Below, in pieces: positions 25,455 through 54,802 of a stretch of DNA of 64,000 nucleotides (the stretch's first letter is position 1; every line of letters begins with the position of its first letter). Both the position numbers and the translations under genes were made by a program. Location of the stretch: the NCBI GenBank assembly GCA_035635775.1, contig DASQAL010000254.1:13035-77034 (forward strand), given 5' to 3'. The DNA is from Candidatus Acidiferrum sp. (GTDB lineage: Bacteria; Methylomirabilota; Methylomirabilia; Rokubacteriales; CSP1-6). The notes below the pieces were generated by a model, which saw only the letters and a list, made by a program, of their open reading frames with translations, was not told the origin of the DNA and did not search any database.

Positions 25455-26435
25455 TCAGGCGGGCGGGGCGGCGGACGCGGAGACGGCCTCGAGCACGGCG
25501 ACGCGCCAGTCGGAGCCGGTGGGCACCCAGCGGAGCAGGAGCGTGATGCCGTCGTGGACGCCGTCGAGGCGGAGCTTCACGAGGCGCTGCTCGCCCACGC
25601 GCGCGCACGCGGCGATCCGATGGCGGCCGCCTCCGACGGCGCGGAGCCGCGTCTCGAGATCCGGGCCCAGCTCCACCTCGGGCGCAAGCCAGCGCCGGGC
25701 CCCGGCCGCGTCACCCGCGATCAGCGCATCGCCGAAGGCGTCGAGGGCCTGGGCCAGCGCGGGGGCGATCGCCCACGTGCCCGTGGATTGCTCGAGGCGG
25801 ATGAATTCGGCGGCATCGTCGCTCAGCGGCGCGGGCGGGTCCGCGGCGGCGCTCGCGCGCGTGACCGGACCCGTCCCGGTCACGCCGCCCGCCGCCTCGA
25901 GCAGCGCCCAGAGCCGGATCTCGCAGGCGCGGGCGCGCGTCTCTAGCTCGGGCGTGCGGAGGAGATGCCGCAGGACCGTCTCCCCGGCCGCCACGTGCCG
26001 CCGCTCGTCCTCGATGCAGCGGGTGAGGATCCGGCAGGTGGGCGGCTCATAGACCGCGTTGGCGCTCACCAGGTGGGCCTCGTAGGTGGCGAGCAGATGC
26101 GGCTTGAGCACGCGGTAGATCGCGACCACGCGCTCGATGGTCTGCTCGGGCCGCTCGGCGGCCTCGACCGCGTCCAGGAAGGCCACCAGCCGCGCGTTGG
26201 CGGGCTCGGAGACCTGCGCGGCGGCGCGCAGCTCGGGGAGGCGCTTGCCCCAGGCGTCCGCGTGCTGCGCACTGTCCCAGACGTGGCGGCCCATGAGCAG
26301 CTTGGCCGAGAGCTCCGGGGTCAGCGCCATCCAGCCGCCCAGGATGCGCGTCATCCGCTCGACCGCGTAGCGGTAGTGGCGGACAGTCTTCGCCGACTCG
26401 TCGACCTCGAGGTGTCCCGCAAGCGGGTGCGTCAT
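25455..26435 (-). CDS. hypothetical protein, ferritin-like (putative diiron ExxH) N-domain fused to NTF2/SnoaL-like C-domain
   Basis: YEAHL... and CIEDERRHVAAGE carboxylate/His pairs; C-terminal 120 aa pattern resembling SnoaL-like fold; assignment is inferential. Confidence 0.4.
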   Translation of the reverse strand: MTHPLAGHLEVDESAKTVRHYRYAVERMTRILGGWMALTPELSAKLLMGRHVWDSAQHADAWGKRLPELRAAAQVSEPANARLVAFLDAVEAAERPEQTIERVVAIYRVLKPHLLATYEAHLVSANAVYEPPTCRILTRCIEDERRHVAAGETVLRHLLRTPELETRARACEIRLWALLEAAGGVTGTGPVTRASAAADPPAPLSDDAAEFIRLEQSTGTWAIAPALAQALDAFGDALIAGDAAGARRWLAPEVELGPDLETRLRAVGGGRHRIAACARVGEQRLVKLRLDGVHDGITLLLRWVPTGSDWRVAVLEAVSASAAPPA

Positions 26436-31086: not shown

Positions 31087-31422
31087 ATGTTACGCTGCGC
31101 CCGCATGGCCTCGGCCAAACGGAAGCTGGGTCTGATGCTCTCCACCACCCCCGACCACCCGAACCTCGAGACCGCCATCGGGCTGTCCCGGGCCGCGCTG
31201 GACGGTGGCGGCGACGTCTACCTGTACCTGATCGACGACGCGGTGGACGCGGTGGACGATGATCGTCTTCTCGCGCTCGCCGATCGCGGACTCAAGCTCT
31301 TCGTATGCGCCTACGGCTGCCAGAAGCGGCGACGGCCCCTGTCCGAGCGCGCCACCAACTGCGGCCTCGTGGTGCTCACCGACGTGATCAACGGGACCGA
31401 TCGCTTCATCGCGCTCAACTAG
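31087..31422 (+). CDS. DsrE/TusD-like sulfur-relay protein
   Basis: DsrE-fold pattern with conserved Cys (LFVCAYGC) and C-terminal GLVVLTDVI; true start may be the internal ATG at 31105. Confidence 0.65.
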   Translation: MLRCARMASAKRKLGLMLSTTPDHPNLETAIGLSRAALDGGGDVYLYLIDDAVDAVDDDRLLALADRGLKLFVCAYGCQKRRRPLSERATNCGLVVLTDVINGTDRFIALN

Positions 31423-31423
31423 C

Positions 31424-31780
31424 GTGGCGAGCCCCAGCCAGCCCACCCTCGTCCTGATCTCGGAGGACCCGCGCGTCTCCCACCGCGCCAACGAGGCGAT
31501 GCGGATCGCGCTCGGCATCGTGGCCGGCGAGAACCAGGTGCGCATCGTGCTGACCGGCCCCGCGGTGCACCTGCTCGATGACGAGACCGACGATCTGGTG
31601 GACGGCGACGACATCGCCAAGTTTCGCGCCGCGCTCCGGAAGCTGGGCGTGCCCTTCCACATCCAGGGCGCCCCGCCCACCCCGGCCGACTGGAACGGCG
31701 ACGGGCATCCGGTGGTTCCGGTCACCGCGGCCGAGGTCGCCGCGATGCTCCCCGGGGCCACGCGCTTTCTCGTGTTCTGA
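31424..31780 (+). CDS. DsrF/TusC-like sulfur-relay protein
   Basis: DsrE/F-fold pattern (TLVLISEDP..., VRIVLTGPAV); GTG start abutting previous stop; no Cys. Confidence 0.55.
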   Translation: MASPSQPTLVLISEDPRVSHRANEAMRIALGIVAGENQVRIVLTGPAVHLLDDETDDLVDGDDIAKFRAALRKLGVPFHIQGAPPTPADWNGDGHPVVPVTAAEVAAMLPGATRFLVF

Positions 31781-32010
31781 TGGCCAGCTTCCTGCACCTC
31801 GTGAAGCGCGACTCGGCCGCGCTCGCGGGCGCGGTGATCGAGTCCAATCTCCGGGAGGCCGACGCGCGGGTCACGGTGGTCCTGCTGGACGGCGCAGTCG
31901 CGCCGTCGCTGCCCGCGGGCGTCGCGGTGCGACGCCTCGGCCCGGGGGACCTGGACTACGCGGGCCTGCTCGATCTGGTCTTCGCTCACGATCACGTGAT
32001 CACCTGGTAG
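31780..32010 (+). CDS. DsrH/TusB-like protein
   Basis: 76 aa ending ...VFAHDHVITW like the TusB C-terminus; TGATG overlap with preceding gene; lacks Cys. Confidence 0.5.
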   Translation: MASFLHLVKRDSAALAGAVIESNLREADARVTVVLLDGAVAPSLPAGVAVRRLGPGDLDYAGLLDLVFAHDHVITW

Positions 32011-38810: not shown

Positions 38811-39200
38811 CTACGGAGAGATAACGCTGGTGCCGTCGCCGCTCGAGGTGATCGTGTAGGTCCCGGCGGGGACGTTCGGGGTATAGGAATAAGCGGCCCA
38901 GCCGCCCGGCGGGGTGGGCACCGAGCTCATGAACGGGCCCGCGCTATTCCCCTGCGCGTTGGTCGCGACTGTGGTGAGCTGTGTGAGGGCCGTCGGGATG
39001 CTGCCCATGTGCGCGCCGTAGACACTGACCGCCGAGGCCAGGCTGCGGGAATCGGCCTGCGCCTTGGCAATACGGCCACGAGCCTGCACGTTGACGAAGA
39101 GCGGAATCGCGATCGTGGCGAGGACGCCGATCACGGCCACGACAACCATCAGCTCGACGAGCGTGAAACCGCGCTCGCTACTCCGGGACCTCCGGGTCAT
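38811..39200 (-). CDS. type IV pilin / pseudopilin (prepilin-type N-terminal methylation domain)
   Basis: RGFTLVELMVVVAVIGVLATIAIP class-III signal peptide with invariant Glu5; start set at MTRRSR inside the listed ORF. Confidence 0.8.
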   Translation of the reverse strand: MTRRSRSSERGFTLVELMVVVAVIGVLATIAIPLFVNVQARGRIAKAQADSRSLASAVSVYGAHMGSIPTALTQLTTVATNAQGNSAGPFMSSVPTPPGGWAAYSYTPNVPAGTYTITSSGDGTSVISP

Positions 39201-39460
39201 GGTCGTCCCCTCCAGTCGGGCGCTACGGGCTACGTACCGGAGCAAGAGAGGGGCCAGCAGGTCCCCCACGGCCTATCTGGCTGAAAACGCGTGGGCGGGC
39301 TGAAACCGTTTGAGGCGGGCGGGCAGAGCCTGACGCGGACAGTCAATCGGGCGGACGAAACGGGCGCTGAACCGGCTCCTCCGGCGAGATCATCCAAAGT
39401 TCTGCTACGCTAGGTCCGTCGTCCACTTTCGCCGCAGGCACGGAGAGAGGGTGCAGATCG

Positions 39461-39706
39461 ATGAGCGAGCCGCGACCGGCCGTCCGAGTATTCAGCAGTC
39501 CCACCTGAGGGCCCTGCAAGGCGGCGAAAGAGTTCCTTTCGTCTCAGGGGGTGGCGTTCGAGGACATCAATGTCCTGGCCGACGCGGAGGCCCGGGAAGA
39601 GCTGATCAAGCTGACGGGAGGCATGAGCATCCCGGTCATCGTGGTCGGAGACCAGGTGGTTCGCGGCTTCAACAAGCCGCAGCTCAAGACCCTGCTGGGA
39701 ATCTAG
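39461..39706 (+). CDS. glutaredoxin-like selenoprotein, active site U-G-P-C with selenocysteine encoded by in-frame TGA at 39506-39508
   Basis: ATG(39461) MSEPRPAVRVFSSPT-TGA-GPCKAAKEFLSSQGVAFEDINVLADAEAREELIKLTGGMSIPVIVVGDQVVRGFNKPQLKTLLGI-TAG; the TGA sits exactly where the first Cys of the Grx CxxC motif belongs; hairpin (putative bSECIS) starts a few nt 3' of the TGA. Confidence 0.7.
39512..39549 (+). promoter_or_regulatory. putative bacterial SECIS stem-loop downstream of the UGA in the Grx-like gene
   Basis: CCCUG-CAA-GGCGAAAG[AGUUC]CUUUCGUC-U-CAGGG: 8-bp inner stem (one G-U), 5-nt apical loop, extended by CCCUG/CAGGG outer stem. Confidence 0.5.
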
Positions 39707-39719
39707 CCCGCGCCGTCCG

Positions 39720-41075
39720 CTAGTTGCCCTGCTGCTGCTTCAGCTTGCGCAGGTGCAGCCGGGCGACGTCCACCCAGTCCTTCTCGGCGGGCAGGTTGGC
39801 GGCCAGCCCGATGTAGCGCTCCCAGAGCGCGATCGATTCCTTGGGGTCCACCTTCTCGTAGACGATGGCCAGGTTGTAGAGCGCGCCGGTGTTCTTGGCG
39901 TCGGCGTCCACCACCTTGCGGTACTCGTCGATCGCTTCCTTGTAGAGGCCCTTGTCCTCGTACACCTCCGCGAGCCCCATCCGCGCATCGAGGTACGTGG
40001 GATCCAGGTCGATCGCCTTCTTGTAGGCGTTGACGGACTCGTAGTAGAGCCCCTTCTCGGCGTAGTAGAGCTTCCCCAGGCTCACGTGCACCTTGGCGTT
40101 CATCGGGTTGTGCTCGACGCCGCGCTGGTACGCGGCGACCGCCGGATCCACCTCGCCCTTCGCGGCGAGCGCGTCGCCCAGCCCGACGTGGGCGTCCGCG
40201 TAGAACGGGCGCAGATCGATGGCCTTGGCGTACGCCTTGATGGCCTCCTCGAAGAGCCGGCGCGGGGCCGTGAGGTACAGATCGCCCAGGGCCTTGTAGG
40301 GCTCCGCGTAGGTGGGATCGAGCTGGGCGGAGGCCCGGAACTGCGCGGCCGCCTTCCAGCGGTTGCCCAGGTTCTGGTGGACCACGCCGAGCGCGTACTG
40401 GGCGGCGACGAACTGCGGATCTGCCTCGATGGCGCGGCTCAGGAACTCGACCGCCGCTTCGCTGCCATCCTGCGTGACCCGGTAGGCGGCCTGGCGCCCG
40501 CGCACGTAGAACTCGTAGGCACGCGATAACCCGGTGGGCGCCGCCCACTTCTGGACGCGCGCCAGCTCCACGTCGCTCGCGGGGACCTTCAGAGCCTTCA
40601 GGTAGCCGGCCGGTAGCGGGCGCAGGCGGTCCAGCAGCTGGCCCTCCGCGATGGCGACGGTGTCCAGCGTGCCGCGCTCGACCTTGTCGCCGCGCAGCTC
40701 CACGAAGCGGGGCTGCAGGATCAGGTCGCTGCCGGTCCGCTTCACCTCCCCGAACAGGGCGACGTCGGCCCCGAGCCGCTTGGCCGCGGCCACGGCGGCC
40801 GCCTCGTCCCACGCCTCCGGCTGCGGGAGCTGCCTGAGGCGGTCGCGATCGATCTGCACCAGCCCCGGCACGTGCACGAGGGCGAGCATGAGCGACTGGG
40901 CCACGCCCTCGCCGATCCACTGCTCCTCCCGCGTGAGATCCGGGGTGGCGAACGGCAGGATGAGCACGTTGCGCGGCTTGGGGGCTGCCTCGGCGACACC
41001 CCCGGCGGCAACCAGCACCAGGAGCAGTCCGGTGACGACGATCCGGTTAGCTCGGATCAGCGCTCTCATCTCCAC
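39720..41075 (-). CDS. secreted TPR-repeat protein
   Basis: Signal peptide then multiple TPR-like repeats (AxxYxxLGxxY... AIxxYxKAIxLxP); start may be M3 (41069). Confidence 0.75.
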   Translation of the reverse strand: MEMRALIRANRIVVTGLLLVLVAAGGVAEAAPKPRNVLILPFATPDLTREEQWIGEGVAQSLMLALVHVPGLVQIDRDRLRQLPQPEAWDEAAAVAAAKRLGADVALFGEVKRTGSDLILQPRFVELRGDKVERGTLDTVAIAEGQLLDRLRPLPAGYLKALKVPASDVELARVQKWAAPTGLSRAYEFYVRGRQAAYRVTQDGSEAAVEFLSRAIEADPQFVAAQYALGVVHQNLGNRWKAAAQFRASAQLDPTYAEPYKALGDLYLTAPRRLFEEAIKAYAKAIDLRPFYADAHVGLGDALAAKGEVDPAVAAYQRGVEHNPMNAKVHVSLGKLYYAEKGLYYESVNAYKKAIDLDPTYLDARMGLAEVYEDKGLYKEAIDEYRKVVDADAKNTGALYNLAIVYEKVDPKESIALWERYIGLAANLPAEKDWVDVARLHLRKLKQQQGN

Positions 41076-44000
41076 GCCCTCCTTTGGCTCGACCCGCGCG
41101 CAGGCGCGCCATCAGCCGACCGAGGCCGACCGGCCCCATCCGGCGCAGCGCGACCTCCGGAATCAGCAGCACCGCCACCAGCCCCACCAGCCACGGCCAG
41201 ATGTCCACGCTCAGGCGCGACTTGTGCCGGTTCTGGAGGAACGCGTCCTTCGGATCGCTCAGCATGCCGCCCCCGGTGAGCTCTGTGATCTCCCGGAGGA
41301 ACGTCTCGTCGACCCCCAGGTCGCGGAACTCCTGCCCGTAGGGCACCACCAGGCCCGCGAGCTGGGAGCCTACCATCTGGTCCGCCCGGCGCTGGGCCAT
41401 GCCCACCAGATACACCCCCTCCTGGGCCGCCGGGAAGCGCCCGCGGTAGCGGCCCGGGCCGATCTGCTCGAGATCGACCACGGTGCGCGTCTTGTCCGGT
41501 GACACCACGCCGACCTGTGAGTCCAGGAAGTTGATGAACTCGCCCTTGGGGTCGATGGCGTCGACCAGGATCTCGCCCACGTTGTCGGTGCGCGAGACCG
41601 TGGCCACCGTATCGCTCCGGGTGCCCGTACGCAACGTCCAGCGCGTCACCTGGGACCAGAACTTGTTGAAGCCGCCCCAGCGCACCCAGAGCACGCCCCA
41701 CTTGGCCTTGGCGTCGGAGGTGAAGGCCACCGACCGGCCCAGGCCGTAGCGCCACGTGGCGAGCAGCGGATCCTCCTGGTGCGTCATCAGCACCAGGTCC
41801 GCGCTGCTCTTCATGCTGGTGGCCACGTAGCCGCCGAGCGGCGGCGCCTCCTTCCAGTTGATCTCCTGGATGGCCTCGTGGGCCGGGCTGGCCACGGTGG
41901 CCTTGAAGGGCTGCTCCACCAGCGAGGCCTTGGAGGCGAGCTGGGTCTCCAGGGTGAAGATGCGGGGGATCGTGGCGTCGTCCTCGGTGTAGTAGAACCG
42001 CCCGCGGCCCCACTTGGCCACGTCCACCATGAGGGGCACGTCGGCGTCCTTGCCGATGGCCACGGTGGAGACCGTGATCTTGTCCTTGGCCATCCGCCGC
42101 AGCAGGCCCGAGAAGTCGCCGCGGGTCATCTGCCCGTCCGACAAGAAGATGACGTGCTTCAGCAGCGCCGGCCGGTCGAAGAGGATCTGGTAGGCCTCCT
42201 TCAGCGCCGGGTAGCCGTCGGTGCCGCCGCCCGCCTTGATCGTGGAGATCGCGTTATGGATGCCCTGCTTGTCCCGGGCCGGCTTGAGGGGAGCGTCCCA
42301 GATGAACTCGGTGTCCCAGCTCATGACCCCGACCTCGTTGCGCTCGTCGAGGAGATCCACCACCAGGTGGGCGGCCTCCTTGGCGATGTCGAGCTTGGTC
42401 ACCTTCTCGTCGGTGGTCATGGCCATGGAGCCCGAGCGATCGATCGAGAGCACCACCGCCAGGCTCGGGATCTCGATCTTCTGCTTCACCTCCATCGTCA
42501 CCGGGAGGGCTTCCTCGATCGGGGTGCGGTAATAGCCGCCGAGGCCGAAGCTCTCCTCGCCGCCCAGCATCAGGAGCCCGCCGCCTTGCTCGCGGACGTA
42601 GTCGCGGATATTCTCCATCTGCTTCTTCGTCATCTTGAGCGACGACACGTTGGACAGGATGAGCCCGTCGTACTTCTGGAGCCCCGCCATGTCCTTGGGG
42701 ATCTTGTCCGCCTCCACCACCGTCACGTCCACGTGCTGGGAGCGCAGGGCCGCCGCGAGGGCCTGGGCCTGGTTGCGGTCCTTCTCGGCGAGCAGCACCT
42801 GCGGCCGCCCGCGCACCACCAGCGTGCCCACCGCGCGGTTGTTCTCCTCGATGGTGTCGCCGTCCACGTCGAGCGCGGCCTGGTAGACGTGGATCCCGCT
42901 CTGCTCGAGCGACTGCCGGTAGGTGAAGACGTTCTTGCCCGGGGAGAGCCGCACCACCTGCGAGCCGAGGAACTCGGCGTTGCGGTAGAGCGACAGCCGC
43001 CCCTGGGTCTCCGCCTGGCTCCACGCCACCACCTTGGCCTGGAACGGCTCGCCGAACTTCACCTCCTGCGGCAGCACCATGGACTCCACGACCACTTCCT
43101 GTGGGAAGGTCAGCGGGGCCGGCACGTAATAGATGTCGGCGCCCGCGTCCTTGGCCGCCTGCGCGACCGCGAGCGCGTTGCCCGCGTTCTGCCGGCCGTC
43201 CGTGAGCAGCACGAACCGGTTGGCCTGGCCGGGCGGCGCGGTGGCCAGCCCGAGCTGGAGCGCCTGGGCCAGGTTCGTCCCGCGCCCGCCCACCTGGGCC
43301 TGGGGGCGCTCGAGCTTGGCGGTCGCGCGAAGCGGCTGGTCCACCATCGCCTCCTCGCCGAACACCACCACGCCCGCCTGGTCGCCCGGCTGCATGCTCG
43401 CCACCGACTGGGCGGCGAAGCGGTACCCGCTCTCGCGCGCGGCCAGGCTCACGCTGTCCGACACGTCCAGCAGGAAGGTCACGTTGAGCCGGTCGGCCCA
43501 GCGCGGGATCGTCGGCTTGGTCAGCGAGTAGAGCAGCATCACCAGGAGCGCGCAGCGTAGGCCGAGGGCCCAGCGGTCGCCCAGCCCGCGGGGCAGCCCG
43601 AGGCGCCCCCCGGTCTGACGGCGCCAGTAGAGGAAGCCCTCCAGCGCGAAGAGCAACAGGGCCAGGGCCACGAAGAAGGGCCAGAGCTCGCGCACGATGA
43701 GCACCGGCGCCGACTCCGGCTGCGCGCCTTCCACGAAGGCGGGCAGCGGCTGCGGGGTCAGGTCCGACTCGTCGCCGTTCATCAGATTCACGGCCACGCG
43801 CGTCTCGCCGCGGGCGGTCACCACCGCGTAGATACCGACCTCGTCGGTCTCGGTGAAGCTCGCCATGCCGCGGTTGACCTGCGCCCGCACGCTACGCCCG
43901 GACGGGGTGCGCACGGTGGCGGTGGTCACTCCGTGCTCCACCGGCAGCAGGATGGGCTGGCCCGTCTGGAGCTGCAGGCTCGACTGGTCGAGCCCGGCCG

Positions 44001-45444
44001 GGTGCAGCCAGCGGAGCCCCTTGGAGAGCATGAGCGGGAAGGCCACCCGCAGGGGGAAGTCGCTGCGGAAGAGATCGAAGCCGAAGAAGAGGGCCTTGCG
44101 GTCGCGCTCTTCCAGGGCGTAGATCAGCGGCCCGCCCACCGCTTCCACGAGGGTCTTGCCGGCGGCGAGCGGCCGGACGCGCATCGCGTCCTCCATCGTC
44201 ACCTTGGCGAAGTCGATCTGCCGCATGATCGGGTGCGTGCGGTCCCAGTCCATGATGGTGGGATTCTCGAGGCGCCCCAGCACCTCGAGCGGCACGTCCA
44301 CGGGCACGGTGTTGACGAGGACGTAGCGACCGTTGCCCAGCTTCTGCGGGCTCACGCTGTCCACCACCACGACGTCGAAGCCCTCCATGCCGCCCTGGTA
44401 GGCGTCGGGCTTGCGCACCTCGAGCTGCACCTGCGGGTCCGTCTTCAGCACCTTTTCCAGGAACAGGTTGCCGGGACTGACGAGCAGGACCGAGATCGTC
44501 CGGGGCGGCGGGATGACCGCGTAGGCGATGTTGTCGGCGTCGAGATCGTCCGAGACGTCGAGCTTGAGCTTGAGCACCCCGCCGCGCTGCTCGCTGAACG
44601 GCACCGTGATGGCCCGGCGCACCTGCGGATCGAGGGTGAGCGTGCGCTCGGTGAGGACCTCGTCGTCCAGGGTCAGCTTCAACGAGAAGCTCTGCCGCTC
44701 GCCCGAGAAGTTGCCCACCGAGAAGAAGGCCTGCGAGTTGTAGGACCCGAAGTAGCTGCGCCGGACCGCGAGGCTCGTGATGCCCACGTTGTGGGAGCGG
44801 CGGCCGGTGCCGGTCCAGCGCACGCGGACGTCGTCGCCCTGGCCCTTGACCGCGTCGGGGTGCGCTCCGTCGGTGAAGACGTGGATCTCCGCGCGCGGGT
44901 CGGGGCCCACCAGCGCGCGCGCGGTCCGGAGGCCCTCCTGCAGGCGGTTCGGGAGGTCGTGCGCCTCCATCGAGCGGATCGCCGAGGAGACCCGGTCGTG
45001 CTCGCGGGTGAAGGGCACCAGCACCTTGGGCTGCACGCCCGCCTCGATCACCATCACCTCGGCGCCCTCGCCCAGGCGGCCGAGCAGCCCGAGCGCGCCG
45101 CGCTGGGCCTGCACGAAGCGCGAGGGCGAGACGTCGATGGCCTTCATGGAGGCGGAGCTGTCCATGACGATGGCCACCCGCTTGGCCCCCTGCCCCATCA
45201 CGTTCACCGCCGGCCGGGCCAGCGCCGCGGTGAGGGCGAGCAAGGCCAGGATCTGGAGGATGAGGAGCGGGTCGCGCTGCAGCCGCTGGAAGAAGGTGGA
45301 GGCCTCGCGGTCGCGGAGCGCGGGCGCCCACAGGAGCAGGCTCGACACCCGCATCTGCCGCCGCCGGACTTTCAGAAAGTACAGGAGGAGCAGCGGCACC
45401 GACAGGGTGCCCAGCAGCAGGGCGAAGGGGCTGAGGAAGTTCAT
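41047..45444 (-). CDS. giant BatA/BatB-like membrane protein with aerotolerance-regulator N-terminal domain and multiple von Willebrand factor A domains (1465 aa)
   Basis: N-terminus MNFLSPFALLLGTLSVPLLLLYFLKVRRR (BatA_N-like); several vWA regions each with a MIDAS DxSxS motif (VAIVMDSSASM, LLDVSDSV, LSIDRSGSM); internal and C-terminal TM segments; overlaps DUF58 gene by ATGA. Confidence 0.75.
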   Translation of the reverse strand: MNFLSPFALLLGTLSVPLLLLYFLKVRRRQMRVSSLLLWAPALRDREASTFFQRLQRDPLLILQILALLALTAALARPAVNVMGQGAKRVAIVMDSSASMKAIDVSPSRFVQAQRGALGLLGRLGEGAEVMVIEAGVQPKVLVPFTREHDRVSSAIRSMEAHDLPNRLQEGLRTARALVGPDPRAEIHVFTDGAHPDAVKGQGDDVRVRWTGTGRRSHNVGITSLAVRRSYFGSYNSQAFFSVGNFSGERQSFSLKLTLDDEVLTERTLTLDPQVRRAITVPFSEQRGGVLKLKLDVSDDLDADNIAYAVIPPPRTISVLLVSPGNLFLEKVLKTDPQVQLEVRKPDAYQGGMEGFDVVVVDSVSPQKLGNGRYVLVNTVPVDVPLEVLGRLENPTIMDWDRTHPIMRQIDFAKVTMEDAMRVRPLAAGKTLVEAVGGPLIYALEERDRKALFFGFDLFRSDFPLRVAFPLMLSKGLRWLHPAGLDQSSLQLQTGQPILLPVEHGVTTATVRTPSGRSVRAQVNRGMASFTETDEVGIYAVVTARGETRVAVNLMNGDESDLTPQPLPAFVEGAQPESAPVLIVRELWPFFVALALLLFALEGFLYWRRQTGGRLGLPRGLGDRWALGLRCALLVMLLYSLTKPTIPRWADRLNVTFLLDVSDSVSLAARESGYRFAAQSVASMQPGDQAGVVVFGEEAMVDQPLRATAKLERPQAQVGGRGTNLAQALQLGLATAPPGQANRFVLLTDGRQNAGNALAVAQAAKDAGADIYYVPAPLTFPQEVVVESMVLPQEVKFGEPFQAKVVAWSQAETQGRLSLYRNAEFLGSQVVRLSPGKNVFTYRQSLEQSGIHVYQAALDVDGDTIEENNRAVGTLVVRGRPQVLLAEKDRNQAQALAAALRSQHVDVTVVEADKIPKDMAGLQKYDGLILSNVSSLKMTKKQMENIRDYVREQGGGLLMLGGEESFGLGGYYRTPIEEALPVTMEVKQKIEIPSLAVVLSIDRSGSMAMTTDEKVTKLDIAKEAAHLVVDLLDERNEVGVMSWDTEFIWDAPLKPARDKQGIHNAISTIKAGGGTDGYPALKEAYQILFDRPALLKHVIFLSDGQMTRGDFSGLLRRMAKDKITVSTVAIGKDADVPLMVDVAKWGRGRFYYTEDDATIPRIFTLETQLASKASLVEQPFKATVASPAHEAIQEINWKEAPPLGGYVATSMKSSADLVLMTHQEDPLLATWRYGLGRSVAFTSDAKAKWGVLWVRWGGFNKFWSQVTRWTLRTGTRSDTVATVSRTDNVGEILVDAIDPKGEFINFLDSQVGVVSPDKTRTVVDLEQIGPGRYRGRFPAAQEGVYLVGMAQRRADQMVGSQLAGLVVPYGQEFRDLGVDETFLREITELTGGGMLSDPKDAFLQNRHKSRLSVDIWPWLVGLVAVLLIPEVALRRMGPVGLGRLMARLRAGRAKGGRGDESADPS

Positions 45445-46349
45445 GCGAGCAGGAGCCCCTTGAGCTGGCGGAGCATGAACTCCTCCACCGGCGTCTCCGT
45501 CACCACCCGGTGGTAGGTGATCTCGTTGCCCCGGCAGAACTGCTCGGCGTGATCGAGGAAGGCGCGGAGCCGCTCGTGGTAGCCGCGCAGGGCCTCGCCG
45601 TCGAGGGTGAGGTCGCGCTGCTCGTCGGTCTCCGCGTCGAGCAGGCGCAGGTCACCGCCGAAGGCGGGATTCATCTCGTCCGCGGCCAGCACGTGGACGA
45701 CGTGCACGTCGAAGCGCCGCTCCAGGAGCGCCTTCAGCCCGCGCTCGTAGCCGCCCGGGTCCATCAGGTCCGAGACGAGCACGGCCAGGCCCGCCTCGCG
45801 CGAGCGCAGCGCGTAGGCCGCGAGCCCCTCGTTCAGCGAGGTGGCCCCGCCCGCGCGCAGGCGGCCGAGGAAGTCCATCAGCGGTATCGCCTGGCTCCGG
45901 CCGCGCGCCGGGTTGAAGCCCTCGGCCATCCGGTCCCGCACCACGCCCACGCCCACCCGCTCGAGCCCCACCAGGCCCACGAAGCCGAGGGCGCCGGCCA
46001 GGCGCGCGGAGTAGTCGAGCTTGGACGGCTCGCCGAAGCCCATGGAGGCGGAGGCATCCACCAGCAGGTGCAGGCAGAGATCCTCCTCGTCCACGAACAG
46101 CTTGAGGTAGAGGCGGTCCAGGCGGGCGTAGACGTTCCAGTCCACGTAGCGGAGATCGTCGCCGACCCCATACTGCCGGTAGTCGGAGAACTCCACGCTG
46201 ATGCCCTTGCGGGGGCTGCGCCGCTCTCCCTTCACGCGTCCACGGAAGGACCGGCGGGAGAGCAGGGTCAGGCGCTCGAGCTGGGTGAGGAAGTCCGTCG
46301 ACAGCAACTCGTGGCCGGCACGCGCGGTGGCCACGACGCTATTTCTCAT
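45441..46349 (-). CDS. DUF58-family protein (MoxR-associated vWA-like)
   Basis: DUF58 pattern EFSDYRQYGVGDDLRYVDWNVYARLDRLYLKLF, LLVDASASM. Confidence 0.75.
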   Translation of the reverse strand: MRNSVVATARAGHELLSTDFLTQLERLTLLSRRSFRGRVKGERRSPRKGISVEFSDYRQYGVGDDLRYVDWNVYARLDRLYLKLFVDEEDLCLHLLVDASASMGFGEPSKLDYSARLAGALGFVGLVGLERVGVGVVRDRMAEGFNPARGRSQAIPLMDFLGRLRAGGATSLNEGLAAYALRSREAGLAVLVSDLMDPGGYERGLKALLERRFDVHVVHVLAADEMNPAFGGDLRLLDAETDEQRDLTLDGEALRGYHERLRAFLDHAEQFCRGNEITYHRVVTETPVEEFMLRQLKGLLLA

Positions 46350-47823
46350 CCAGCGCTTGGAAGTACTCCTTCACCTGGCTCTGGAAGTCGCGCGGCACCT
46401 GCTCGCGCGCGATGGACTCCTCCATCATCTTCCGGTACTGCCCCAGCACGCCCATGTACTGCAGGCGGGAGGGCATCTGCGAGCCGCGCCCGACCATGTT
46501 GGTGTCGATCCCCTGCTTGCGACCCGCACGGGCCTCACCCTCCACGCCCACGTCGAACGGACTACCACGCAGGCGCGCGGTGGGGTCGCCCTTCGGAGAC
46601 CCGCTCTTGCCGCGGCCCGGCAGCAGCCCCTCGCCCTCCGGGAAATCGCCCTCGTCGCCCGGCCCGCCCTGGCCCTGGCCGCGCTCGTTCCCGCGCTTGT
46701 TGCCGCGCCGGTCGCTCTCGCGCCCACCCTTGAGCGACTTGCCGTCGCGGCCCCGCTCCTCCTTGGAGCGCATCTTGTTCAGCGCCCGCTCCATGGCCTC
46801 CATCGCCCGGTCGCTCTGGCCGCCCTCGAGGGCTTCCATGCCTTCGTAGACGTCCCCCGACCAGTCGCTCTGCCCACCCCCTGGCTGGTTCTTCCGCCCA
46901 AGCCGCTCCATCTCCTGCAACAGCTCGCGCAGTTTCTCCGGCGACACCTTCTTATTGGGGTCGAGACCGCCGCGCAGTGCCTTGGCCTTCTGCAAGACCA
47001 TCCGGGCCTGGTTCTGCGTGAAGTCGCTCTGGAGATCCGGCAGCCGGTCCATCTGCTCCAGCATCCGCAGCCGGTCGTCGCCCTTCTTGAGGAAGGAGTT
47101 GAAATCGGGCGCCCGGCCGGCCAGCGACGTGTCCTTGAAGACGGCGGCGAGATCGCCGGGCTGGCTCTGGCCGCCCCCGCCCATGCGCGGCGTCAGCGTG
47201 CGCTCCTGCACCTCCGCCCGCTGCACCGGATCGCGCCGGGTGGCCTGCCGGCGCTCCGCCTGCTGCAGGTCTCCGCCGCGCTCCTTGAGCTTCTCCTCTT
47301 CCTCGTCCCGGGAGACCGAGAAGTTGGGCAGGCCGCCCTGGGGCAACGGAATGGGCGGGGCCGCCGCGAGCACGAGGCCCAGGACGAGCGGGACGGGAAC
47401 GAACTTGGCCCCCCGGGGCAACCGACGCGGGATGATGCGCCGCGCGCCGAGCCGGTCGGCGCGGGCCGCCGCGTCGGCGACGAGGGCCTCCACGATCGGG
47501 GTCCGGTCCGCGCGCTCGGCCCACTCCAGCGCGGTGCTCACCCGATCTTGAAGTCCGTAGCCGCGGTCGGCGAGCCGCGCCGCGTCCGCCTGGGGCAGCT
47601 TCAGCAGGAAGCCCCACAGGGCTCCGGCCCCCGCGCCCGCCAGCAGGAGGATCGCGGCGCCCACGTAGCTCCAGATCCCCAGCGACTCCTTGAGCACGAG
47701 CGGCACCACCGCGGCCACCGCGCCCCACAGGAGGCCGCGCAGGCCATAGAATTCAGCGCGCCGCAGGCGGATCTGCCGGGCGACCTCCGCGACGAGCCGC
47801 TCGATCACCGTGGGACCGGGCAT
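46339..47823 (-). CDS. hypothetical membrane protein with charged/low-complexity C-terminal region (MoxR-operon associated)
   Basis: Two N-terminal TM helices then Arg/Glu/Gly-rich region; position between moxR and DUF58 as in Bat-type operons. Confidence 0.5.
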   Translation of the reverse strand: MPGPTVIERLVAEVARQIRLRRAEFYGLRGLLWGAVAAVVPLVLKESLGIWSYVGAAILLLAGAGAGALWGFLLKLPQADAARLADRGYGLQDRVSTALEWAERADRTPIVEALVADAAARADRLGARRIIPRRLPRGAKFVPVPLVLGLVLAAAPPIPLPQGGLPNFSVSRDEEEEKLKERGGDLQQAERRQATRRDPVQRAEVQERTLTPRMGGGGQSQPGDLAAVFKDTSLAGRAPDFNSFLKKGDDRLRMLEQMDRLPDLQSDFTQNQARMVLQKAKALRGGLDPNKKVSPEKLRELLQEMERLGRKNQPGGGQSDWSGDVYEGMEALEGGQSDRAMEAMERALNKMRSKEERGRDGKSLKGGRESDRRGNKRGNERGQGQGGPGDEGDFPEGEGLLPGRGKSGSPKGDPTARLRGSPFDVGVEGEARAGRKQGIDTNMVGRGSQMPSRLQYMGVLGQYRKMMEESIAREQVPRDFQSQVKEYFQALDEK

Positions 47824-47839
47824 CAGACTCTCCTCTCGC

Positions 47840-48877
47840 CTATCTCAGGAAGACCTCTTTCTCTGAACCGGTCATGCTCTCGGCGGCCGCGACGGTCTGG
47901 CCGATCAGGTCGTCCACGTCCACGCCCTCCGCCTCGCCCTCGAAGTTCAGGATGAGCCGGTGACGGAGCGCGGGCAGCGCGGTGGCCCGGAGATCCTCCA
48001 CACTGACGTTGAAGCGGCCTTCCGAGAGCGCGCGGACCTTCGCGCCCAGCACCAGGGCCTGCGCTCCGCGCGGGCTCGCCCCGTAGCGGATGAAGCGACG
48101 CGTCGACTCGGGGGCCCGCTCCCACTGCGGATGGGTGGCGAGCACGATGAAGGAGGCGAGGTCTCGCACGTGGGTGGCGATCGGGATCTCGCGCACCAGC
48201 TCGCGCATGGTGAGCACCTGGGCACCGGTCAGCACGCGCCGGACCTCGACGTGCCGCACGTGGGTGGTGCGGTCGATGATCTCGGTGAGTTCCTCGAGAG
48301 CCGGATAGCGGACCCGCAGCTTGAAGAGGAAGCGGTCGAGCTGCGCCTCCGGCAGCGGGTAGGTGCCTTCCATCTCGATGGGGTTCTGGGTGGCGAGCAC
48401 GAAGAAGGGCGCGGGCAGCGGGTGGGAGTGGCCGGAGACGGTGACCGACCCCTCCTGCATGCCCTCCAGGAGCGCCGACTGCGTCTTCGGGGTGGCCCGG
48501 TTCACCTCGTCGGCGAGCAGGATGTGGCCAAAGATGGGCCCGCGCTGGAACTGGAAGTGCTTTCGCGCCTGGGCGTCTTCCACGATGATATTGGTGCCGA
48601 TGATGTCGCCCGGCATCAGGTCCGGCGTGAACTGGATGCGGGAGAAGGAGAGCTCGAGGCTCTCCGCGAGGGTCTTGATGAGAAGCGTCTTGCCGAGGCC
48701 GGGGACGCCTTCCAGCAGCACGTGACCGCCCGCGAAGAGACCGACCAGCACCTCGCCGACGACGTCGTGATGGCCGACGATGACCTTGCCGACCTCGGCG
48801 CGCAGCGCCTGGTGGGCGCTCACGAACTCCTGGACTCGCTGCTCCTGGGACTGGCTAGACACGGGAGGCTGCGCCAT
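47840..48877 (-). CDS. MoxR-family AAA+ ATPase
   Basis: Walker A GVPGLGKT, Walker B ILLADEVNRATP, MoxR C-terminal region; AGGAG SD upstream of chosen ATG. Confidence 0.9.
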   Translation of the reverse strand: MAQPPVSSQSQEQRVQEFVSAHQALRAEVGKVIVGHHDVVGEVLVGLFAGGHVLLEGVPGLGKTLLIKTLAESLELSFSRIQFTPDLMPGDIIGTNIIVEDAQARKHFQFQRGPIFGHILLADEVNRATPKTQSALLEGMQEGSVTVSGHSHPLPAPFFVLATQNPIEMEGTYPLPEAQLDRFLFKLRVRYPALEELTEIIDRTTHVRHVEVRRVLTGAQVLTMRELVREIPIATHVRDLASFIVLATHPQWERAPESTRRFIRYGASPRGAQALVLGAKVRALSEGRFNVSVEDLRATALPALRHRLILNFEGEAEGVDVDDLIGQTVAAAESMTGSEKEVFLR

Positions 48878-49094
48878 GAACGGCTCCTTTCCCGCCTGGA
48901 ATTGAATTGATCCATCATAGGGGGGCGTTCCAGCCCCGTCAACTACTTGCCCCTTCTTCTGGCACTCCGATGTGCGTGGTGCCGGAATTTCACTCAGCGT
49001 CACGCGTGCGACACCCCGAAACGCGTGCGAAACGCGCTCGAACGCGCGCGCGGCCCGATTGACTCGATGCGGCAGCAAGGACCGTGCCGCGCGC

Positions 49095-50141
49095 TCAGCC
49101 GGAATCAGGCACCAGTCGCATGTACACGGCGAGGTAGCCGTCGATTTCGCGGTCGGCGCCGAAGCGCGCGCTGACACGCTCGCGGCCCGCCACCCCGAGC
49201 CGCGCGCGGAGATCGGGATCCTGCAGCAGGCGATCGGCCTTCGCGGCCAGCTCCTCCGCCGAGCCGAACAGGAAGCCGGTGATCGCGTCCTCGACGAGGG
49301 ATCGGTTACCCGCGATGTCCGCGGCGAGCACCGCGCGGCCGAGGGAGAGGGCTTCGAGCACCGAGTTGGCCATCCCGCCCTCGGCGAGCGAGCAGTTGAG
49401 CACCACGTCCGCCAGATCGAGGAGGGCGGGCATGCGGTTGTGCGGCACCGCCCCCAGGTACCGGGCCCACCGATAGTCGGCCAGCAGCCGGCGCAGGGCC
49501 TCGCCTTCCGCCGCGTCGATGATCGGCCCCACGTAGACCAGCTCGAGCGTCGGATGCCGGTCGCGCAGGCCCTCGAGCGGCTCCAGCGGAAACGCGGGCC
49601 GCTTCACCTTCCGGATGCCGGCCGGGAACAGAACGATGGGGCCGGGCAGCCGCTGGAGCGCGGCGACCGGCGGCCAGTGGCCGGCGGCCGGCACCCCGAA
49701 CACCGCGCTCTGCGGGATCACCACGAGGCGGGCCGCGGTCGCGGGCAGCGCCTCCACGATGCGATCCGCCATCGACTTGTCGAAGACACTCACCGCCCCC
49801 GCGCCCTCCAGCACCCGCCGGACGATGGGCGCCGCGTCCTCGTCGAAGAGATCCTGGTTCACGTCGGTGCCCGTCACCGTCACCAGCAGCGGGACGCCCA
49901 CGCGCCGCGCCAGCCGCAGCGCGGTGGGGCCGGTGCGGAAGGCGTGGAACGCGTGGATCACCGACGGCCCGTACTGGGTGATCTGGTGGTCGACCGCGCC
50001 CTCGGGCACCACCGAGAGATCCCAGACGCGCAGCTCGACACCGCGCTGCCGGAGACCGCGCGCGATACGGTCGACCGTGATGGCATTGCCGCGAACCGAG
50101 GGCGAGGCGAAGGGCGTGAGGACGGCCACCCGAGCGGCCAT
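49095..50141 (-). CDS. GT4 family glycosyltransferase (glycosyl transferases group 1)
   Basis: GT-B fold pattern with C-terminal E-x7-E region (EGGMANSVLEALSLGRAVLAADIAG). Confidence 0.75.
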   Translation of the reverse strand: MAARVAVLTPFASPSVRGNAITVDRIARGLRQRGVELRVWDLSVVPEGAVDHQITQYGPSVIHAFHAFRTGPTALRLARRVGVPLLVTVTGTDVNQDLFDEDAAPIVRRVLEGAGAVSVFDKSMADRIVEALPATAARLVVIPQSAVFGVPAAGHWPPVAALQRLPGPIVLFPAGIRKVKRPAFPLEPLEGLRDRHPTLELVYVGPIIDAAEGEALRRLLADYRWARYLGAVPHNRMPALLDLADVVLNCSLAEGGMANSVLEALSLGRAVLAADIAGNRSLVEDAITGFLFGSAEELAAKADRLLQDPDLRARLGVAGRERVSARFGADREIDGYLAVYMRLVPDSG

Positions 50142-50641: not shown

Positions 50642-51709
50642 TTAGGCTAGCGCGAGTCGCGGCTCGGCGGTCACCTCGCCGATCTCCCACACCGGCTCGC
50701 GCGCGCTCGCGAAGGCCTCGCGCACCGCGTCGGCCCTCGCCGGGTCCACCGCGAAGAGCAGGCCGCCCGAGGTCTCCGACTCACAGAGCAGGTTGACCAT
50801 CGCGTCCGGCACCGCCGGGTCGATGCGGAGCCGCCCGAAGACCTCTTCGAGGTAGCGGCGGTTTCGCCCCATGCCGCCGCTCCAGCCCCCCAGATCGGCC
50901 AGCGCCCGCGCGCCTGGTAAGAGCGGCAGGTCCTGGCTTCGAATGGTCAGGCCCGCCCCCGAGGCCGCCACCATCTCGCTGGCGTGGCCGAGGAGCCCGA
51001 ACCCGGTGATGTCGGTGGCGCCGGTCGCCCCCGCCTCCTGCGCCACCCGGGCCGCCACGCGGTTGAGCCGGAGCATGCTCTGCACCGCGCCGTCGAGGAC
51101 CGCGGGCTCGCACTTGTCGTTCTTGGCCGCGGTGGCGATCACCCCGGTGCCGAGGGGCTTGGACAGGAACACGCGCTGACCCGCGCGGAGTCCGCCCTTG
51201 ATCAGGATGCGCCGCGGGTCGACCCGGCCGGTCACGCAGAGGCCGTACTTCGGCTCCGCGTCCACGACGGTGTGGCCGCCCGCGATGACGCCGCCCGCCT
51301 CGTGCACCTTGTCAGCGCCGCCCCGGAAGACGGCCGCGATGATGTCCTTGGGCAGCTCGCGCGGGAAGCCCGCCACGTTGAGCGCGAACAGCACCTGCCC
51401 GCCCATCGCGTACACGTCGGACATCGAGTTCGCGGCCGCGATCGCCCCGAAGAGATAGGGGTCGTCGACGATGGGCGGGAAGAAGTCGACCGTCTCCACG
51501 ATGGCCACGTCATCGGTCACGCGGTAGACGGCGGCGTCGTCGCTCCGGCCGAGCCCCACCAGCAGATCGGGGTGCTCCTCGCGGCGCAGATCCCCGAGCA
51601 CGGCCTGGAGATCTCCAGGACCCATCTTGGACGCTCACCCCGCGCAGGCGGCGTAGGCGGTGAGCCGGATCTCCTTGCCGGTCTTGGGATCGATCAGCTT
51701 CGGGTCCAT
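50642..51709 (-). CDS. selD: selenide, water dikinase (selenophosphate synthetase), selenocysteine-containing form (in-frame TGA at 51635-51637)
   Basis: Listed ORF starts MGPGDLQAVL... (SelD core: DAAV, AIR-synthase-like fold) but the reverse strand continues upstream in frame: ATG(51709) MDPKLIDPKTGKEIRLTAYAACAG-TGA-ASKMGPGDL..., aligning Sec with the catalytic Cys17 of E. coli SelD (TQYSHGAGCGCK); perfect palindrome CCTGGAGATCTCCAGG 15 nt 3' of the TGA. Confidence 0.8.
51600..51622 (-). promoter_or_regulatory. putative bSECIS hairpin for selD UGA
   Basis: CCUGGAGAUCUCCAGG (6-bp stem, 4-nt loop, extendable) beginning 15 nt downstream of the in-frame UGA. Confidence 0.5.
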
Positions 51710-53243: not shown

Positions 53244-53795
53244 CTAGACCGTCGGCAGCACGATCCCCTGCTGGCCCTGATACTTCCCCTGCCGGTCAGC
53301 ATATGACGTCTCGCAGGCCTCGTCCGATTCAAAGAAAAGGACCTGCGCGATGCCCTCATTGGCGTAGATCTTCGCCGGGAGCGGCGTGGTGTTGCTGATC
53401 TCGAGCGTCACGTACCCCTCCCACTCCGGCTCGAACGGCGTCACGTTCGTGATGACGCCGCACCGCGCGTAGGTCGACTTCCCTACGCAGATCGTCAGCA
53501 CGTTGCGCGGGATCTTGAAGTACTCCACCGAGCGTCCCAGCGCGAACGAGTTGGGCGGGATCACCGCGACCTCGCCCTGATAGTCGACGAAAGACCGCGG
53601 GTCGAAGCTCTTCGGATCCACGATCGTGGTGTTGATATTGGTGAAGATCTTGAACTCATCCGCGATGCGGATGTCGTACCCGTAGGAGGAGAGGCCGTAG
53701 GAGATCCCGCCCTTGCGCACCTGACGGTCTTCGAAGGGCTTGATCATGCCCTTCTCCACGGCCATGCGCCGGATCCAGCGGTCGCTCTTGATCAC
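53244..53795 (-). CDS. dcd: dCTP deaminase
   Basis: dUTPase-like fold motifs ([25 protein letters not shown]). Confidence 0.88.
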
Positions 53796-53838
53796 ACGTG
53801 CACCTTGTACCGATCGTACTGCCTGCTCCGAGTGGGAG

Positions 53839-54747
53839 TCAAGTCTCGGGCAGTCGTTCCCACGTCGCGCCCTCCGCGTCCACCGGGAGACTGAGCGCCC
53901 GGCCCCCGATCCCGGCCTCCCGCAGCGCGCGCTCCATCGCGCGCGCCACGTCGTCGCCGCGGCCGCGCACCGCCGCGAGCATGGACGGACCCGCCCCGCT
54001 CAGGACGCAACCGAGTGCGCCCGCCCGCCGCCCCGCGGCGGCCACCGCCTCCATCCACGGGAAGAGCCGCTGGCGATAGGGCTGGTGGAGCCGGTCCTGC
54101 ATGGCGAGGTCGAGCAGGTCCGGGCGTCCGGCCCCGAGCGCGGCCAGCAGCAGGCTCACCCGCTGCACGTTGAAGACCGCGTCGGCCCGCGGGACCGAGT
54201 CCGGAAGCACCGCCCGGGCCTCCCGCGTGGAGCTCTCGGTCTCGGGCAGCAGCACCACCCAGGCGATCTCGCGCGGCACCGGCAGGCTCACCGCGGTGAC
54301 GCGCGCCCCGTCGGCGCAGGATACGGTGAGCCCGCCCAGCACCGCAGCGGCCACGTTGTCCGGATGGCCCTCGGCCCGGGCCGCCGCGGTGACGAGCGCG
54401 TCGCGATCGAGCGGCTCGCCCAGCAGCGCGTTGGCCGCGAGCAGGCCGCCGACCCAGGCCGCCGCGCTCGAGCCCAGGCCGCGGTTCAGCGGGATGCGGT
54501 TGACGCAGCGAAGGCGCCCGCCGCGGAAGGGCCGGCCCGCCACCTCGAAGCCCAGGGTGACGCCGCGGGCGACCACGTTCGTCGCGTCCCCGTCGAGCCG
54601 GCCCGCGCCCTCGCCCTCCACGCTGACGGAGACTTCGTCCGCCTCCTCGAGGATCACCTCGTTGTGGAGCCCCAGCGCCAGGCCCAGCGCGTCGAAGCCC
54701 GGCCCGAGGTTGGCGGAGGTGGCGGGCACGCGAACCCGGACGCGCAT
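53839..54747 (-). CDS. thrB: homoserine kinase
   Basis: GHMP kinase motifs [12 protein letters not shown] and [15 protein letters not shown]; start at MRVRVRV inside listed ORF. Confidence 0.88.
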
Positions 54748-54802
54748 GGCGCAGAGAATACCCCGGGTCCGGGGTAGAATGCGTGAGAACGGGCCGGCCG
54801 CT

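Follow-up and report, generated by a model that had tools for sequence, protein, structure and literature searches.

Glutaredoxins (Grx) that carry selenocysteine (Sec, U) form one of the listed families of bacterial selenoproteins, defined by the Pfam domain PF00462 and a UxxC active site (PMC13188914). The enzyme from C. (Alkaliphilus) oremlandii, cGrx1 (PDB 7c10/7c12/7c13), is a native Sec glutaredoxin with the active site U-P-H-C, and it was proposed to be the reductant of the selenoprotein methionine sulfoxide reductase A (MsrA) (PMC7642778). As discussed in PMC3720550, Cp9 of C. pasteurianum passes electrons from the thioredoxin reductase (TrxR)-like Cp34 to the peroxiredoxin Cp20. NrdH, in turn, is defined by the motif C-[VMI]-Q-C together with the nrdHIEF operon (PMC3720550). 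Selenoproteins are also reported from the bacterial phylum Methylomirabilota; one metagenome-assembled genome (MAG) of this phylum was predicted to hold 63 selenoprotein genes (PMC13188914, citing Deng et al.), and Sec-type group 4 hydrogenases are present in it (PMC13582414). Here, a stretch of 64,000 nucleotides (nt) of contig DASQAL010000254.1 from a Methylomirabilota assembly filed as Candidatus Acidiferrum sp. was analysed; this whole stretch is called the window. It was concluded that positions 39461-39706 are very probably a functional monocistronic gene for an 81-residue short Grx-like redoxin in which the first active-site residue is Sec. The short Grx-like group to which the redoxin belongs comprises Cp9/YruB, BC3987, NrdH and C. 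oremlandii Grx1. The protein is not new in kind; it is a U-G-P-C variant of the known Grx selenoprotein family, in a phylum reported to be rich in selenoproteins.

A Grx-like selenoprotein with a UxxC site had been proposed at this position in a first-pass annotation made from the sequence of the window. This proposal is supported by the conservation of the TGA, by the Cys/Sec pairs found at the codon, by the downstream hairpin and by the fold of the protein. The parts of the gene are given below.

39461-39706, plus strand: coding sequence of the predicted Grx/NrdH/Cp9-type redoxin selenoprotein, 81 residues (translation, Pfam, NCBIfam, PDB match, synteny)
39506-39508, plus strand: in-frame TGA, codon 16, very probably read as selenocysteine; Cys-type homologs have the first Cys of CxxC at the aligned position
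39515-39517, plus strand: TGC codon of the resolving Cys19 of U-G-P-C, invariant in 97 of 97 family members examined
39442-39451, plus strand: purine-rich stretch GGAGAGAGGG, 10-19 nt 5' of the ATG, a possible Shine-Dalgarno sequence proposed from the letters only

Re-reading and translation of the sequence confirmed the frame that had been described, with ATG at 39461, an in-frame TGA at 39506-39508 and TAG at 39704-39706. The translation is MSEPRPAVRVFSSPT-TGA-GPCKAAKEFLSS...KTLLGI*, that is, 80 sense codons and the Sec codon before the stop, with the active site U16-G-P-C19. A consensus scan of 39200-39800 found neither a sigma-70-like promoter nor an intrinsic terminator.

When U was scored as C, residues 8-67 matched the Pfam family Glutaredoxin (PF00462) over positions 1-60 of the 60-position profile (E=6.9e-20; 71.5 bits, cutoff 22.9), so that the TGA lies inside the region of homology. 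The best NCBIfam match was TIGR02196 (GlrX_YruB), with residues 8-79 on profile positions 2-73 of 74 at 85.7 bits. By these profile comparisons the redoxin appears to be a close relative of the YruB/Cp9 family and not an equivalog. It also has the features described for the Cp9/Grx-like group in PMC3720550, namely the [IV]-x-[ILV]-[YF]-[ST] strand, the [ST]-x3-C-x-x-C spacing (S12...U16), Pro58 and Gly69-Phe70. Assignment as an NrdH-redoxin was rejected on the TIGR02194 score (54.2 versus 85.75), on the motif U-G-P-C and on the neighbours, a pseudopilin gene and an operon of the tetratricopeptide repeat (TPR)/Bat-like type. Assignment to UXX-star (NF041212) was likewise rejected; the score was 59.2 versus 66 bits, the subfamily models gave 35-49 against cutoffs of 72-100, and in comparison with these models the Sec of the window redoxin is N-terminal and within UxxC. 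The NCBIfam model of Grx3 scores well below its cutoff.

Sequence matches in the PDB were cGrx1 (7c10; E=7e-14, residues 8-81), BC3987 (3zij; 4e-12) and the NrdH of M. tuberculosis (3e-10). The fold was taken from the AlphaFold model of P0002, an 84%-identical protein, which has a mean predicted local distance difference test (pLDDT) value of 75.8 and the order beta1(8-12)-alpha1(17-28)-beta2-alpha2-beta3-beta4-alpha3. In this model, residue 16 is predicted to stand immediately before the N-terminus of alpha1. The Foldseek neighbours of the model are BC3987, M. tuberculosis NrdH and cGrx1, with template modelling (TM) scores of about 0.8-0.9 and root-mean-square deviations (rmsd) of 1.4-1.8 Å; these nearest structural relatives are a mixture of thioredoxin-reductase-dependent proteins (BC3987, NrdH) and proteins named Grx. 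Both the complete PF00462 match (1-60 of 60) and the thioredoxin fold of the P0002 model bear out the first-pass description of a full-length glutaredoxin/NrdH-like fold interrupted only by the TGA. The remark that Grx-like selenoproteins are a known family also holds, as PMC13188914 lists Grx (UxxC) and cGrx1 has been studied experimentally.

Relatives were collected by a genome scan with one genome per species, which gave 22 related loci, and by a metagenome scan; the resulting family set holds 42 genes with TGA and 55 with TGT or TGC at the codon in question. The closest 14 loci (69-96% identity) are Methylomirabilota/Rokubacteria MAG contigs, some of which are binned under other names. Together with the window they give 15 orthologs, and in these the eight codons before the TGA (-8 to -1, V-R-V-F-S-S-P-T in the window) keep their amino acids or change them conservatively, with the pattern V-[RVT]-V-[FY]-S-S-P-T. 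In seven of the eight, the pairwise synonymous difference is 0.2-0.67. At -1, Thr is always encoded by ACC, and this codon opens a stretch of suppressed synonymous change. Because amino acids are kept while synonymous sites change, the eight codons are judged to be translated. In the eleven closest sequences an ATG or GTG start precedes the TGA by 15 codons, and in more distant orthologs by 12-13; ahead of the beta1 strand the residues vary, and stops are met further upstream. Protein conservation extends over codons +1 to +65 as well, and synonymous change is seen there outside the hairpin. From these comparisons the upstream pattern appears to be the true N-terminus of the protein and not a leader.

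These data bear directly on the best-surviving alternative, in which the real gene would be a short downstream ORF (open reading frame) of 51 amino acids (aa), starting at GTG 39551 and ending at 39706, and the 90 nt upstream would be an untranslated leader. This ORF does appear in the ORF list of the window, and most database relatives are called as a "glutaredoxin" of 44-66 aa. Its product, however, would have neither strand beta1 nor helix alpha1 nor the CxxC centre, the Pfam match crosses the TGA, and upstream the protein sequence is kept while synonymous sites change freely. The conserved N-terminal codons and the start kept at 15 codons (12-13 in distant orthologs) before the TGA, with stops further upstream, therefore place the start of the gene upstream and not downstream; the concern that the N-terminal codons might not be conserved and that the gene might begin later is not borne out in the 15 orthologs. 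A short downstream gene is thus regarded as very improbable.

The same calls show how the gene, as an 81-residue Sec redoxin, is missed by annotation. In the window, the ORF list has only an out-of-frame ORF of 90 aa (39451-39723) and the in-frame GTG ORF of 51 aa (39551-39706), just as the first-pass annotation had remarked in saying that the ORF track misses the gene. Its expectation that such genes normally go unannotated was also found to be correct. Only 4 of 74 database relatives are called at full length, three of them with the TGA as W and one with Cys; the remainder are mostly shortened calls of 44-66 aa, and a few are mis-framed or fused.

At the codon itself, TGA is found in 42 independent homologous genes and TGT or TGC in 55 other relatives, and these 55 homologs establish that the TGA stands exactly at the first active-site Cys, as had been claimed. 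It was found in 15 of 15 Methylomirabilota sequences (the window and L001-L014), in the Chloroflexota loci L016 (UGYC) and L018 (UPYC) and in 25 further metagenome genes. The motifs of the TGA forms (n=42) are UGPC in 22, UQSC in 15, UPYC in three, and UVPC and UGYC in one each, and those of the TGT/TGC forms (n=55) are mostly CPYC and CGYC. As one of the two metagenome search patterns demanded Cys at this codon, the relative numbers of TGA and Cys forms are no estimate of frequency. Genes around the redoxin are conserved as well; in the 14 Methylomirabilota MAG loci the flanking proteins share 57-96% identity with their counterparts in the window. The minus-strand genes upstream are HscA, IscS, IscR and a GalT-like gene, with a pseudopilin gene in the closest ten loci; downstream and convergent are TPR, a 1465-aa von Willebrand factor A (vWA) protein, DUF58, orf494, MoxR and a glycosyltransferase. 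The TGA appears to have outlasted a long divergence, because it is conserved in 42 genes and the neighbours of the MAG orthologs, at 57-96% identity, stand in conserved order.

This pattern leaves little room for the explanation that the TGA of the window is a nonsense mutation in a pseudogene, or an error of sequencing or assembly. A close relative, P0002 (locus L105), reads TGC at the codon, and two MAG loci, L021 and L022, carry cut copies of the gene, which could be taken as signs of decay. The TGC copy, however, lies on a contig of 636 bp with 0.94x coverage, and the breaks in L021 and L022 fall downstream of the hairpin, neither of them at the TGA. The occurrence of TGA at this very codon in 42 independent assemblies, with the frame intact on both sides and with conserved synteny, argues against error and decay alike, and this explanation is considered even less probable than the short ORF. 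The first-pass annotation had itself raised a sequencing error; the 42 assemblies speak against it.

The second line of evidence for a Sec codon is the hairpin that follows it, which has the anatomy of a Sec insertion sequence (SECIS).

39512-39549, plus strand: whole SECIS-like hairpin, with lower stem 39512-39516/39545-39549 (CCCUG/CAGGG), internal loop and upper stem-loop
39523-39543, plus strand: core of the putative SECIS element, an 8-bp upper stem GGCGAAAG/CUUUCGUC (39523-39530/39536-39543) with a 5-nt loop AGUUC at 39531-39535

The upper stem starts 14 nt after the TGA and the apical loop 22 nt after it. The hairpin is the minimum free energy (MFE) fold of 39506-39550, at -15.6 kcal/mol. 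A stem-loop at 39512-39549 just 3' of the TGA had been noted from the sequence; it was recovered as the MFE fold and is present in 41 of the 42 TGA forms. The consensus model of the bacterial SECIS (bSECIS) of Zhang and Gladyshev, as summarised in PMC13188914, allows an apical loop of 3-9 nt (here 5 nt), an upper stem of 4-16 bp (here 8 bp) and a spacing of 16-37 nt from UGA to loop (here 22 nt), and requires a G in the first two loop positions (here at position 2, with U next) and an MFE of -7.5 kcal/mol or lower (here -15.6 kcal/mol). The bSECIS check suggested in the first-pass annotation thus gave agreement with each of these published values, and the hairpin tracks the TGA. At least seven contiguous in-register stem pairs were found in 41 of 42 TGA forms versus 2 of 55 Cys forms (Fisher p=9e-24, a value that overstates independence, as the 42 TGA forms are phylogenetically related). 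Among 40 distinct TGA-type sequences, 95.6% of pair cells hold standard pairs versus 46-65% after the partners have been shifted by 1-3 columns; pairing reaches 98.4% in the upper stem and 91% in the lower stem. The stem changes observed are all compatible with pairing and one-sided, from G-U to A-U or G-C and from A-U to G-U.

Selection on the RNA is also suggested by the codons. In the 15 orthologs, the mean pairwise synonymous difference is 0.065 in codons -1 to +13 (39503-39547) versus 0.385 for the gene's other codons (Mann-Whitney p=5.8e-6). Six four-fold degenerate codons across the hairpin (GGG, CCC, GCG, GCG, CTT and TCG) are frozen, and the frozen AT-rich codons AAA, TTY and CTT look out of place, the neighbour genes having 86-97% GC at third positions.

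The third line of evidence comes from a gene of Sec biosynthesis, which lies 12 kb from the redoxin gene.

50642-51709, minus strand: selD, selenophosphate synthetase, with ATG at 51709 (tblastn, TIGR00476)

A tblastn search with E. coli SelD gave 38.6% identity over 337 aa (51676-50672, minus strand), and the alignment passes through a TGA. This TGA, at 51637-51635, is codon 25 and is aligned with the catalytic Cys17 of the E. coli enzyme (IRLTAYAACAG-U-ASKMGPGDL versus IRLTQYSHGAG-C17-GCK). With U scored as C, the protein reaches 350.7 bits on the selD equivalog model TIGR00476, against a cutoff of 125. A hairpin of 6 bp (51619-51604) begins 15 nt after the TGA, with the loop GAUC 21 nt after it. 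This gene, too, is present in the ORF list only in shortened form, as a 327-aa ORF with an ATG start (50642-51625). Since such a selD itself requires Sec decoding, it is strong indirect evidence that the organism decodes UGA as Sec. An in-frame-TGA scan of the window, which asked for coding signal on both sides, gave selD as the sole credible case; its thresholds missed the Grx gene itself, so the scan is not exhaustive. The other matches of the scan were rejected as adjacent genes in the same frame (58228), antisense frames or true stops.

A reading of the TGA as a standard amino acid (Trp or Gly under an alternative code, or SECIS-independent read-through) is comparably improbable to an error or pseudogene: the W at this position in the Joint Genome Institute (JGI) proteins P0001, P0003 and P0004 would favour it, but P0001 has TGA in its DNA (L106 1001-1246) and owes its W to a gene caller that applied genetic code 4 to a short contig, CxxC chemistry would be lost with W or G as the nucleophilic residue, the GC content of about 70% is unlike known code 4/25 lineages, and the TGA-linked hairpin and the Sec-type selD favour Sec. 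Moreover, TGA is not reassigned genome-wide, because it is the commonest ordinary stop in the window and ends 19 of 40 likely genes; with the code-4 origin of the W in P0001, an alternative genetic code was rejected on this ground. It was observed in passing that short high-GC contigs are evidently called with code 4, which masks selenoproteins as apparent Trp proteins.

Several observations have to be set against the assignment of a Sec redoxin. A tblastn search of the window and the 22 related loci with the E. coli SelA and SelB proteins gave no selA or selB, and no tRNA-Sec was found in the window (ARAGORN, and Rfam at gathering thresholds) or in 18 related loci (ARAGORN); the flanks searched extended at most 10 kb on each side for genome loci and 1.5 kb for metagenome loci. 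The TIGR02196 score of 85.7, obtained with U as C, is narrowly under the cutoff of 88.55. The folding energy of the hairpin is ordinary for a GC content of 68-70% (z = -0.69 for 71 nt and -0.53 for 45 nt; z = -2.2 for the 27-nt hairpin core). Thermodynamics were dropped as evidence because these z-scores are unremarkable, and support for the hairpin comes from comparison with homologs, through its conservation and its association with the TGA. That comparison has its own weak side. In the 40 TGA-type sequences the stem is near-invariant and essentially no compensatory covariation was seen; one pair changed on both sides, a value reached by 258 of 500 shuffles. The peptide KE[FY]LS, encoded as AAAGAGTTYCTTTC, is inherently self-complementary (K-E-F-L-S = AAA GAG TTY CTT TCN), and two Cys forms with CPYC, L073 and L082, retain a 7-bp stem in the SECIS register. 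These self-complementary K-E-[FY]-L-S codons may have pre-adapted the family for the evolution of a SECIS and may show how such an element could arise. No RNA family of any kind was matched in the window by Rfam at gathering thresholds, the hairpin included, and a permissive Rfam scan of 39440-39640 gave chance-level matches to unrelated families only. Finally, the close clade includes a single Cys ortholog, P0002 (L105 367-612; ENA ERZ23872303 NODE_244182), which has TGC, is 84% identical and rests on the 636-bp, 0.94x contig already mentioned; it retains a complete and perfect SECIS hairpin, and its TGC could reflect either an error in the reads or a Sec-to-Cys change of very recent date.

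For the Sec redoxin, the following mechanism is proposed. The ribosome would translate 15 codons and reach the UGA at codon 16, where the hairpin 14 nt downstream would act as the SECIS; its apical G-U would recruit SelB-GTP-Sec-tRNA(Sec), and Sec would be inserted in place of termination. We infer SelB binding and the incorporation of selenium at the UGA from the anatomy of the hairpin and from established bacterial Sec decoding. In the protein, the selenolate of U16 at the N-terminus of alpha1 would attack a disulfide, sulfenate or selenenylsulfide of the substrate, and Cys19 would then resolve this intermediate, leaving an intramolecular selenenylsulfide. The presumed reductant of this bond would be either a flavoprotein reductase or a low-molecular-weight thiol. 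Expression would be gated by the selenium that SelD supplies. Likely substrates, to judge from Cp9 and cGrx1, are enzymes of the peroxiredoxin or Msr type.

Pfam scans of about 40 genes of the window showed no adjacent redox partner (reductase, peroxiredoxin or Msr), and no msrA is among the genes scanned. At a distance of 22 kb, on the minus strand (61398-61943), there is a gene for an AhpC/TSA (TlpA-like) thiol-disulfide oxidoreductase, which has Cys here and belongs to a family with Sec members; it is a possible unlinked partner of the redoxin. A pyridine-nucleotide disulfide oxidoreductase (58234-59634) was considered as a partner and rejected, as it belongs to a 2-oxoacid dehydrogenase cluster.

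A wider reading of the family is put forward only tentatively, and we regard it as rather doubtful. The U-G-P-C proteins might be a distinct, lineage-wide Methylomirabilota subfamily of Sec redoxins, and all Sec forms might derive from one acquisition of Sec, spread in part by horizontal transfer. Under this reading, a thioredoxin-type dipeptide on a Cp9/NrdH scaffold would have become fixed in a locus with the isc Fe-S cluster genes on one side and a Bat-like operon on the other, and the near-invariant 21-nt SECIS would be common to the UQSC, UVPC and UPYC/UGYC forms of other lineages, including Chloroflexota. A crude neighbour-joining tree of 96 members, which rests on about 70 aligned residues, has all Sec forms in one half with some Cys forms interspersed, places UGPC and UVPC as sister to UQSC and puts L073 beside the Chloroflexota Sec forms; its topology is no more than suggestive. 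If the single origin were true, the SECIS would have been built on the self-complementary K-E-F-L-S codons, and the protein sequence there would now follow from the RNA element.

The sister Sec clade has the motif VYW-S-[ST]-T-U-Q-S-C-H and the same 21-nt SECIS, and its proteins are 51-58% identical to that of the window. Its members, from soil metagenomes, are L032, L034, L038, L040, L042, L044, L047, L051, L053, L058, L059, L066, L084, L092 and L094.

The two cut copies deserve a separate description. In L021 (2672-4500; Rokuibacteriota MAG JACORX010000265), the redoxin gene is cut directly after the hairpin (...gagtttctttcg|gtggctcc), and about 300 nt past the break there is an IS91-family transposase gene (PF04986 Y2_Tnp, PF14319 Zn_Tnp_IS91). 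In L022 (10025-11497; Rokubacteria MAG CAVPSB010000014), the second copy reads SSPT-TGA-RPCKAAKEFLSS and is followed by unrelated sequence, with a gene for an MscS-like channel on the other strand downstream of the break. The coincidence of two independent breaks may indicate that this site is fragile or targeted.

At 39720-49177, on the minus strand and running towards the redoxin gene, lies the Bat-like (aerotolerance-type) operon, with genes for a MoxR AAA ATPase, orf494, DUF58, the 1465-aa vWA protein and the TPR protein, and this arrangement is kept in 14 of 14 Methylomirabilota loci. The window has about 70% GC and otherwise carries housekeeping genes. Its exact IscS protein is present on soil metagenome contigs, which is information on habitat only. 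Four sizeable ORFs of coding-like composition, all on the minus strand (53792-55864, 46339-47823, 25455-26435 and 31090-31995), gave no Pfam match at E<=1e-4 or 1e-5.

The value of the case lies mainly in annotation; it does not change what is known of Sec decoding or of Grx-type selenoproteins. The Grx-like Sec family is systematically mis-called in public databases, so that the catalytic half of the protein is hidden from standard annotation, and so is the reliance of these abundant soil bacteria on selenium. As the TGA is tied to one near-invariant hairpin, a simple search pattern for further members is at hand. The stretch AKEFLSS is a clean example of an RNA element constraining a protein sequence. 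Together with the nearby Sec-type selD, the redoxin is a concrete and well-supported example for the large Methylomirabilota selenoproteomes reported recently.

On comparing the locus with described systems, the closest is cGrx1. Both are Grx-like proteins of about 80 aa with a thioredoxin fold and Sec as the first residue of UxxC, and the P0002 model, at 43% identity, superposes on 7c10 with TM scores of 0.82/0.90 and an rmsd of 1.4 Å. They differ in the dipeptide, which is the thioredoxin-type G-P here and P-H in cGrx1, and in the host, a high-GC soil Methylomirabilota in place of a Firmicute. With the Cp9/YruB redoxins (TIGR02196), the protein shares a length of 75-80 aa and the strand, spacing, Pro58 and Gly69-Phe70 of the group; it is set apart by Sec for Cys, by G-P for the usual P-[YW], by a score just under the cutoff and by a locus without an adjacent reductase or peroxiredoxin gene. 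BC3987 (PDB 3zij/3zit, C-P-P-C) and NrdH (1h75, 4hs1) are its top structural neighbours, with TM scores of about 0.8-0.87 and an rmsd of 1.6-1.8 Å. Both of these groups have Cys only, unlike the window redoxin, and neither the C-[VMI]-Q-C motif nor the nrdHIEF operon of NrdH is found at the redoxin locus. The element at 39523-39543, for its part, agrees with every constraint of the consensus bSECIS model quoted in PMC13188914. It differs from this consensus in that the stem GGCGAAAG/CUUUCGUC is near-identical among homologs with 42-57% protein identity, being conserved in sequence and not covarying.

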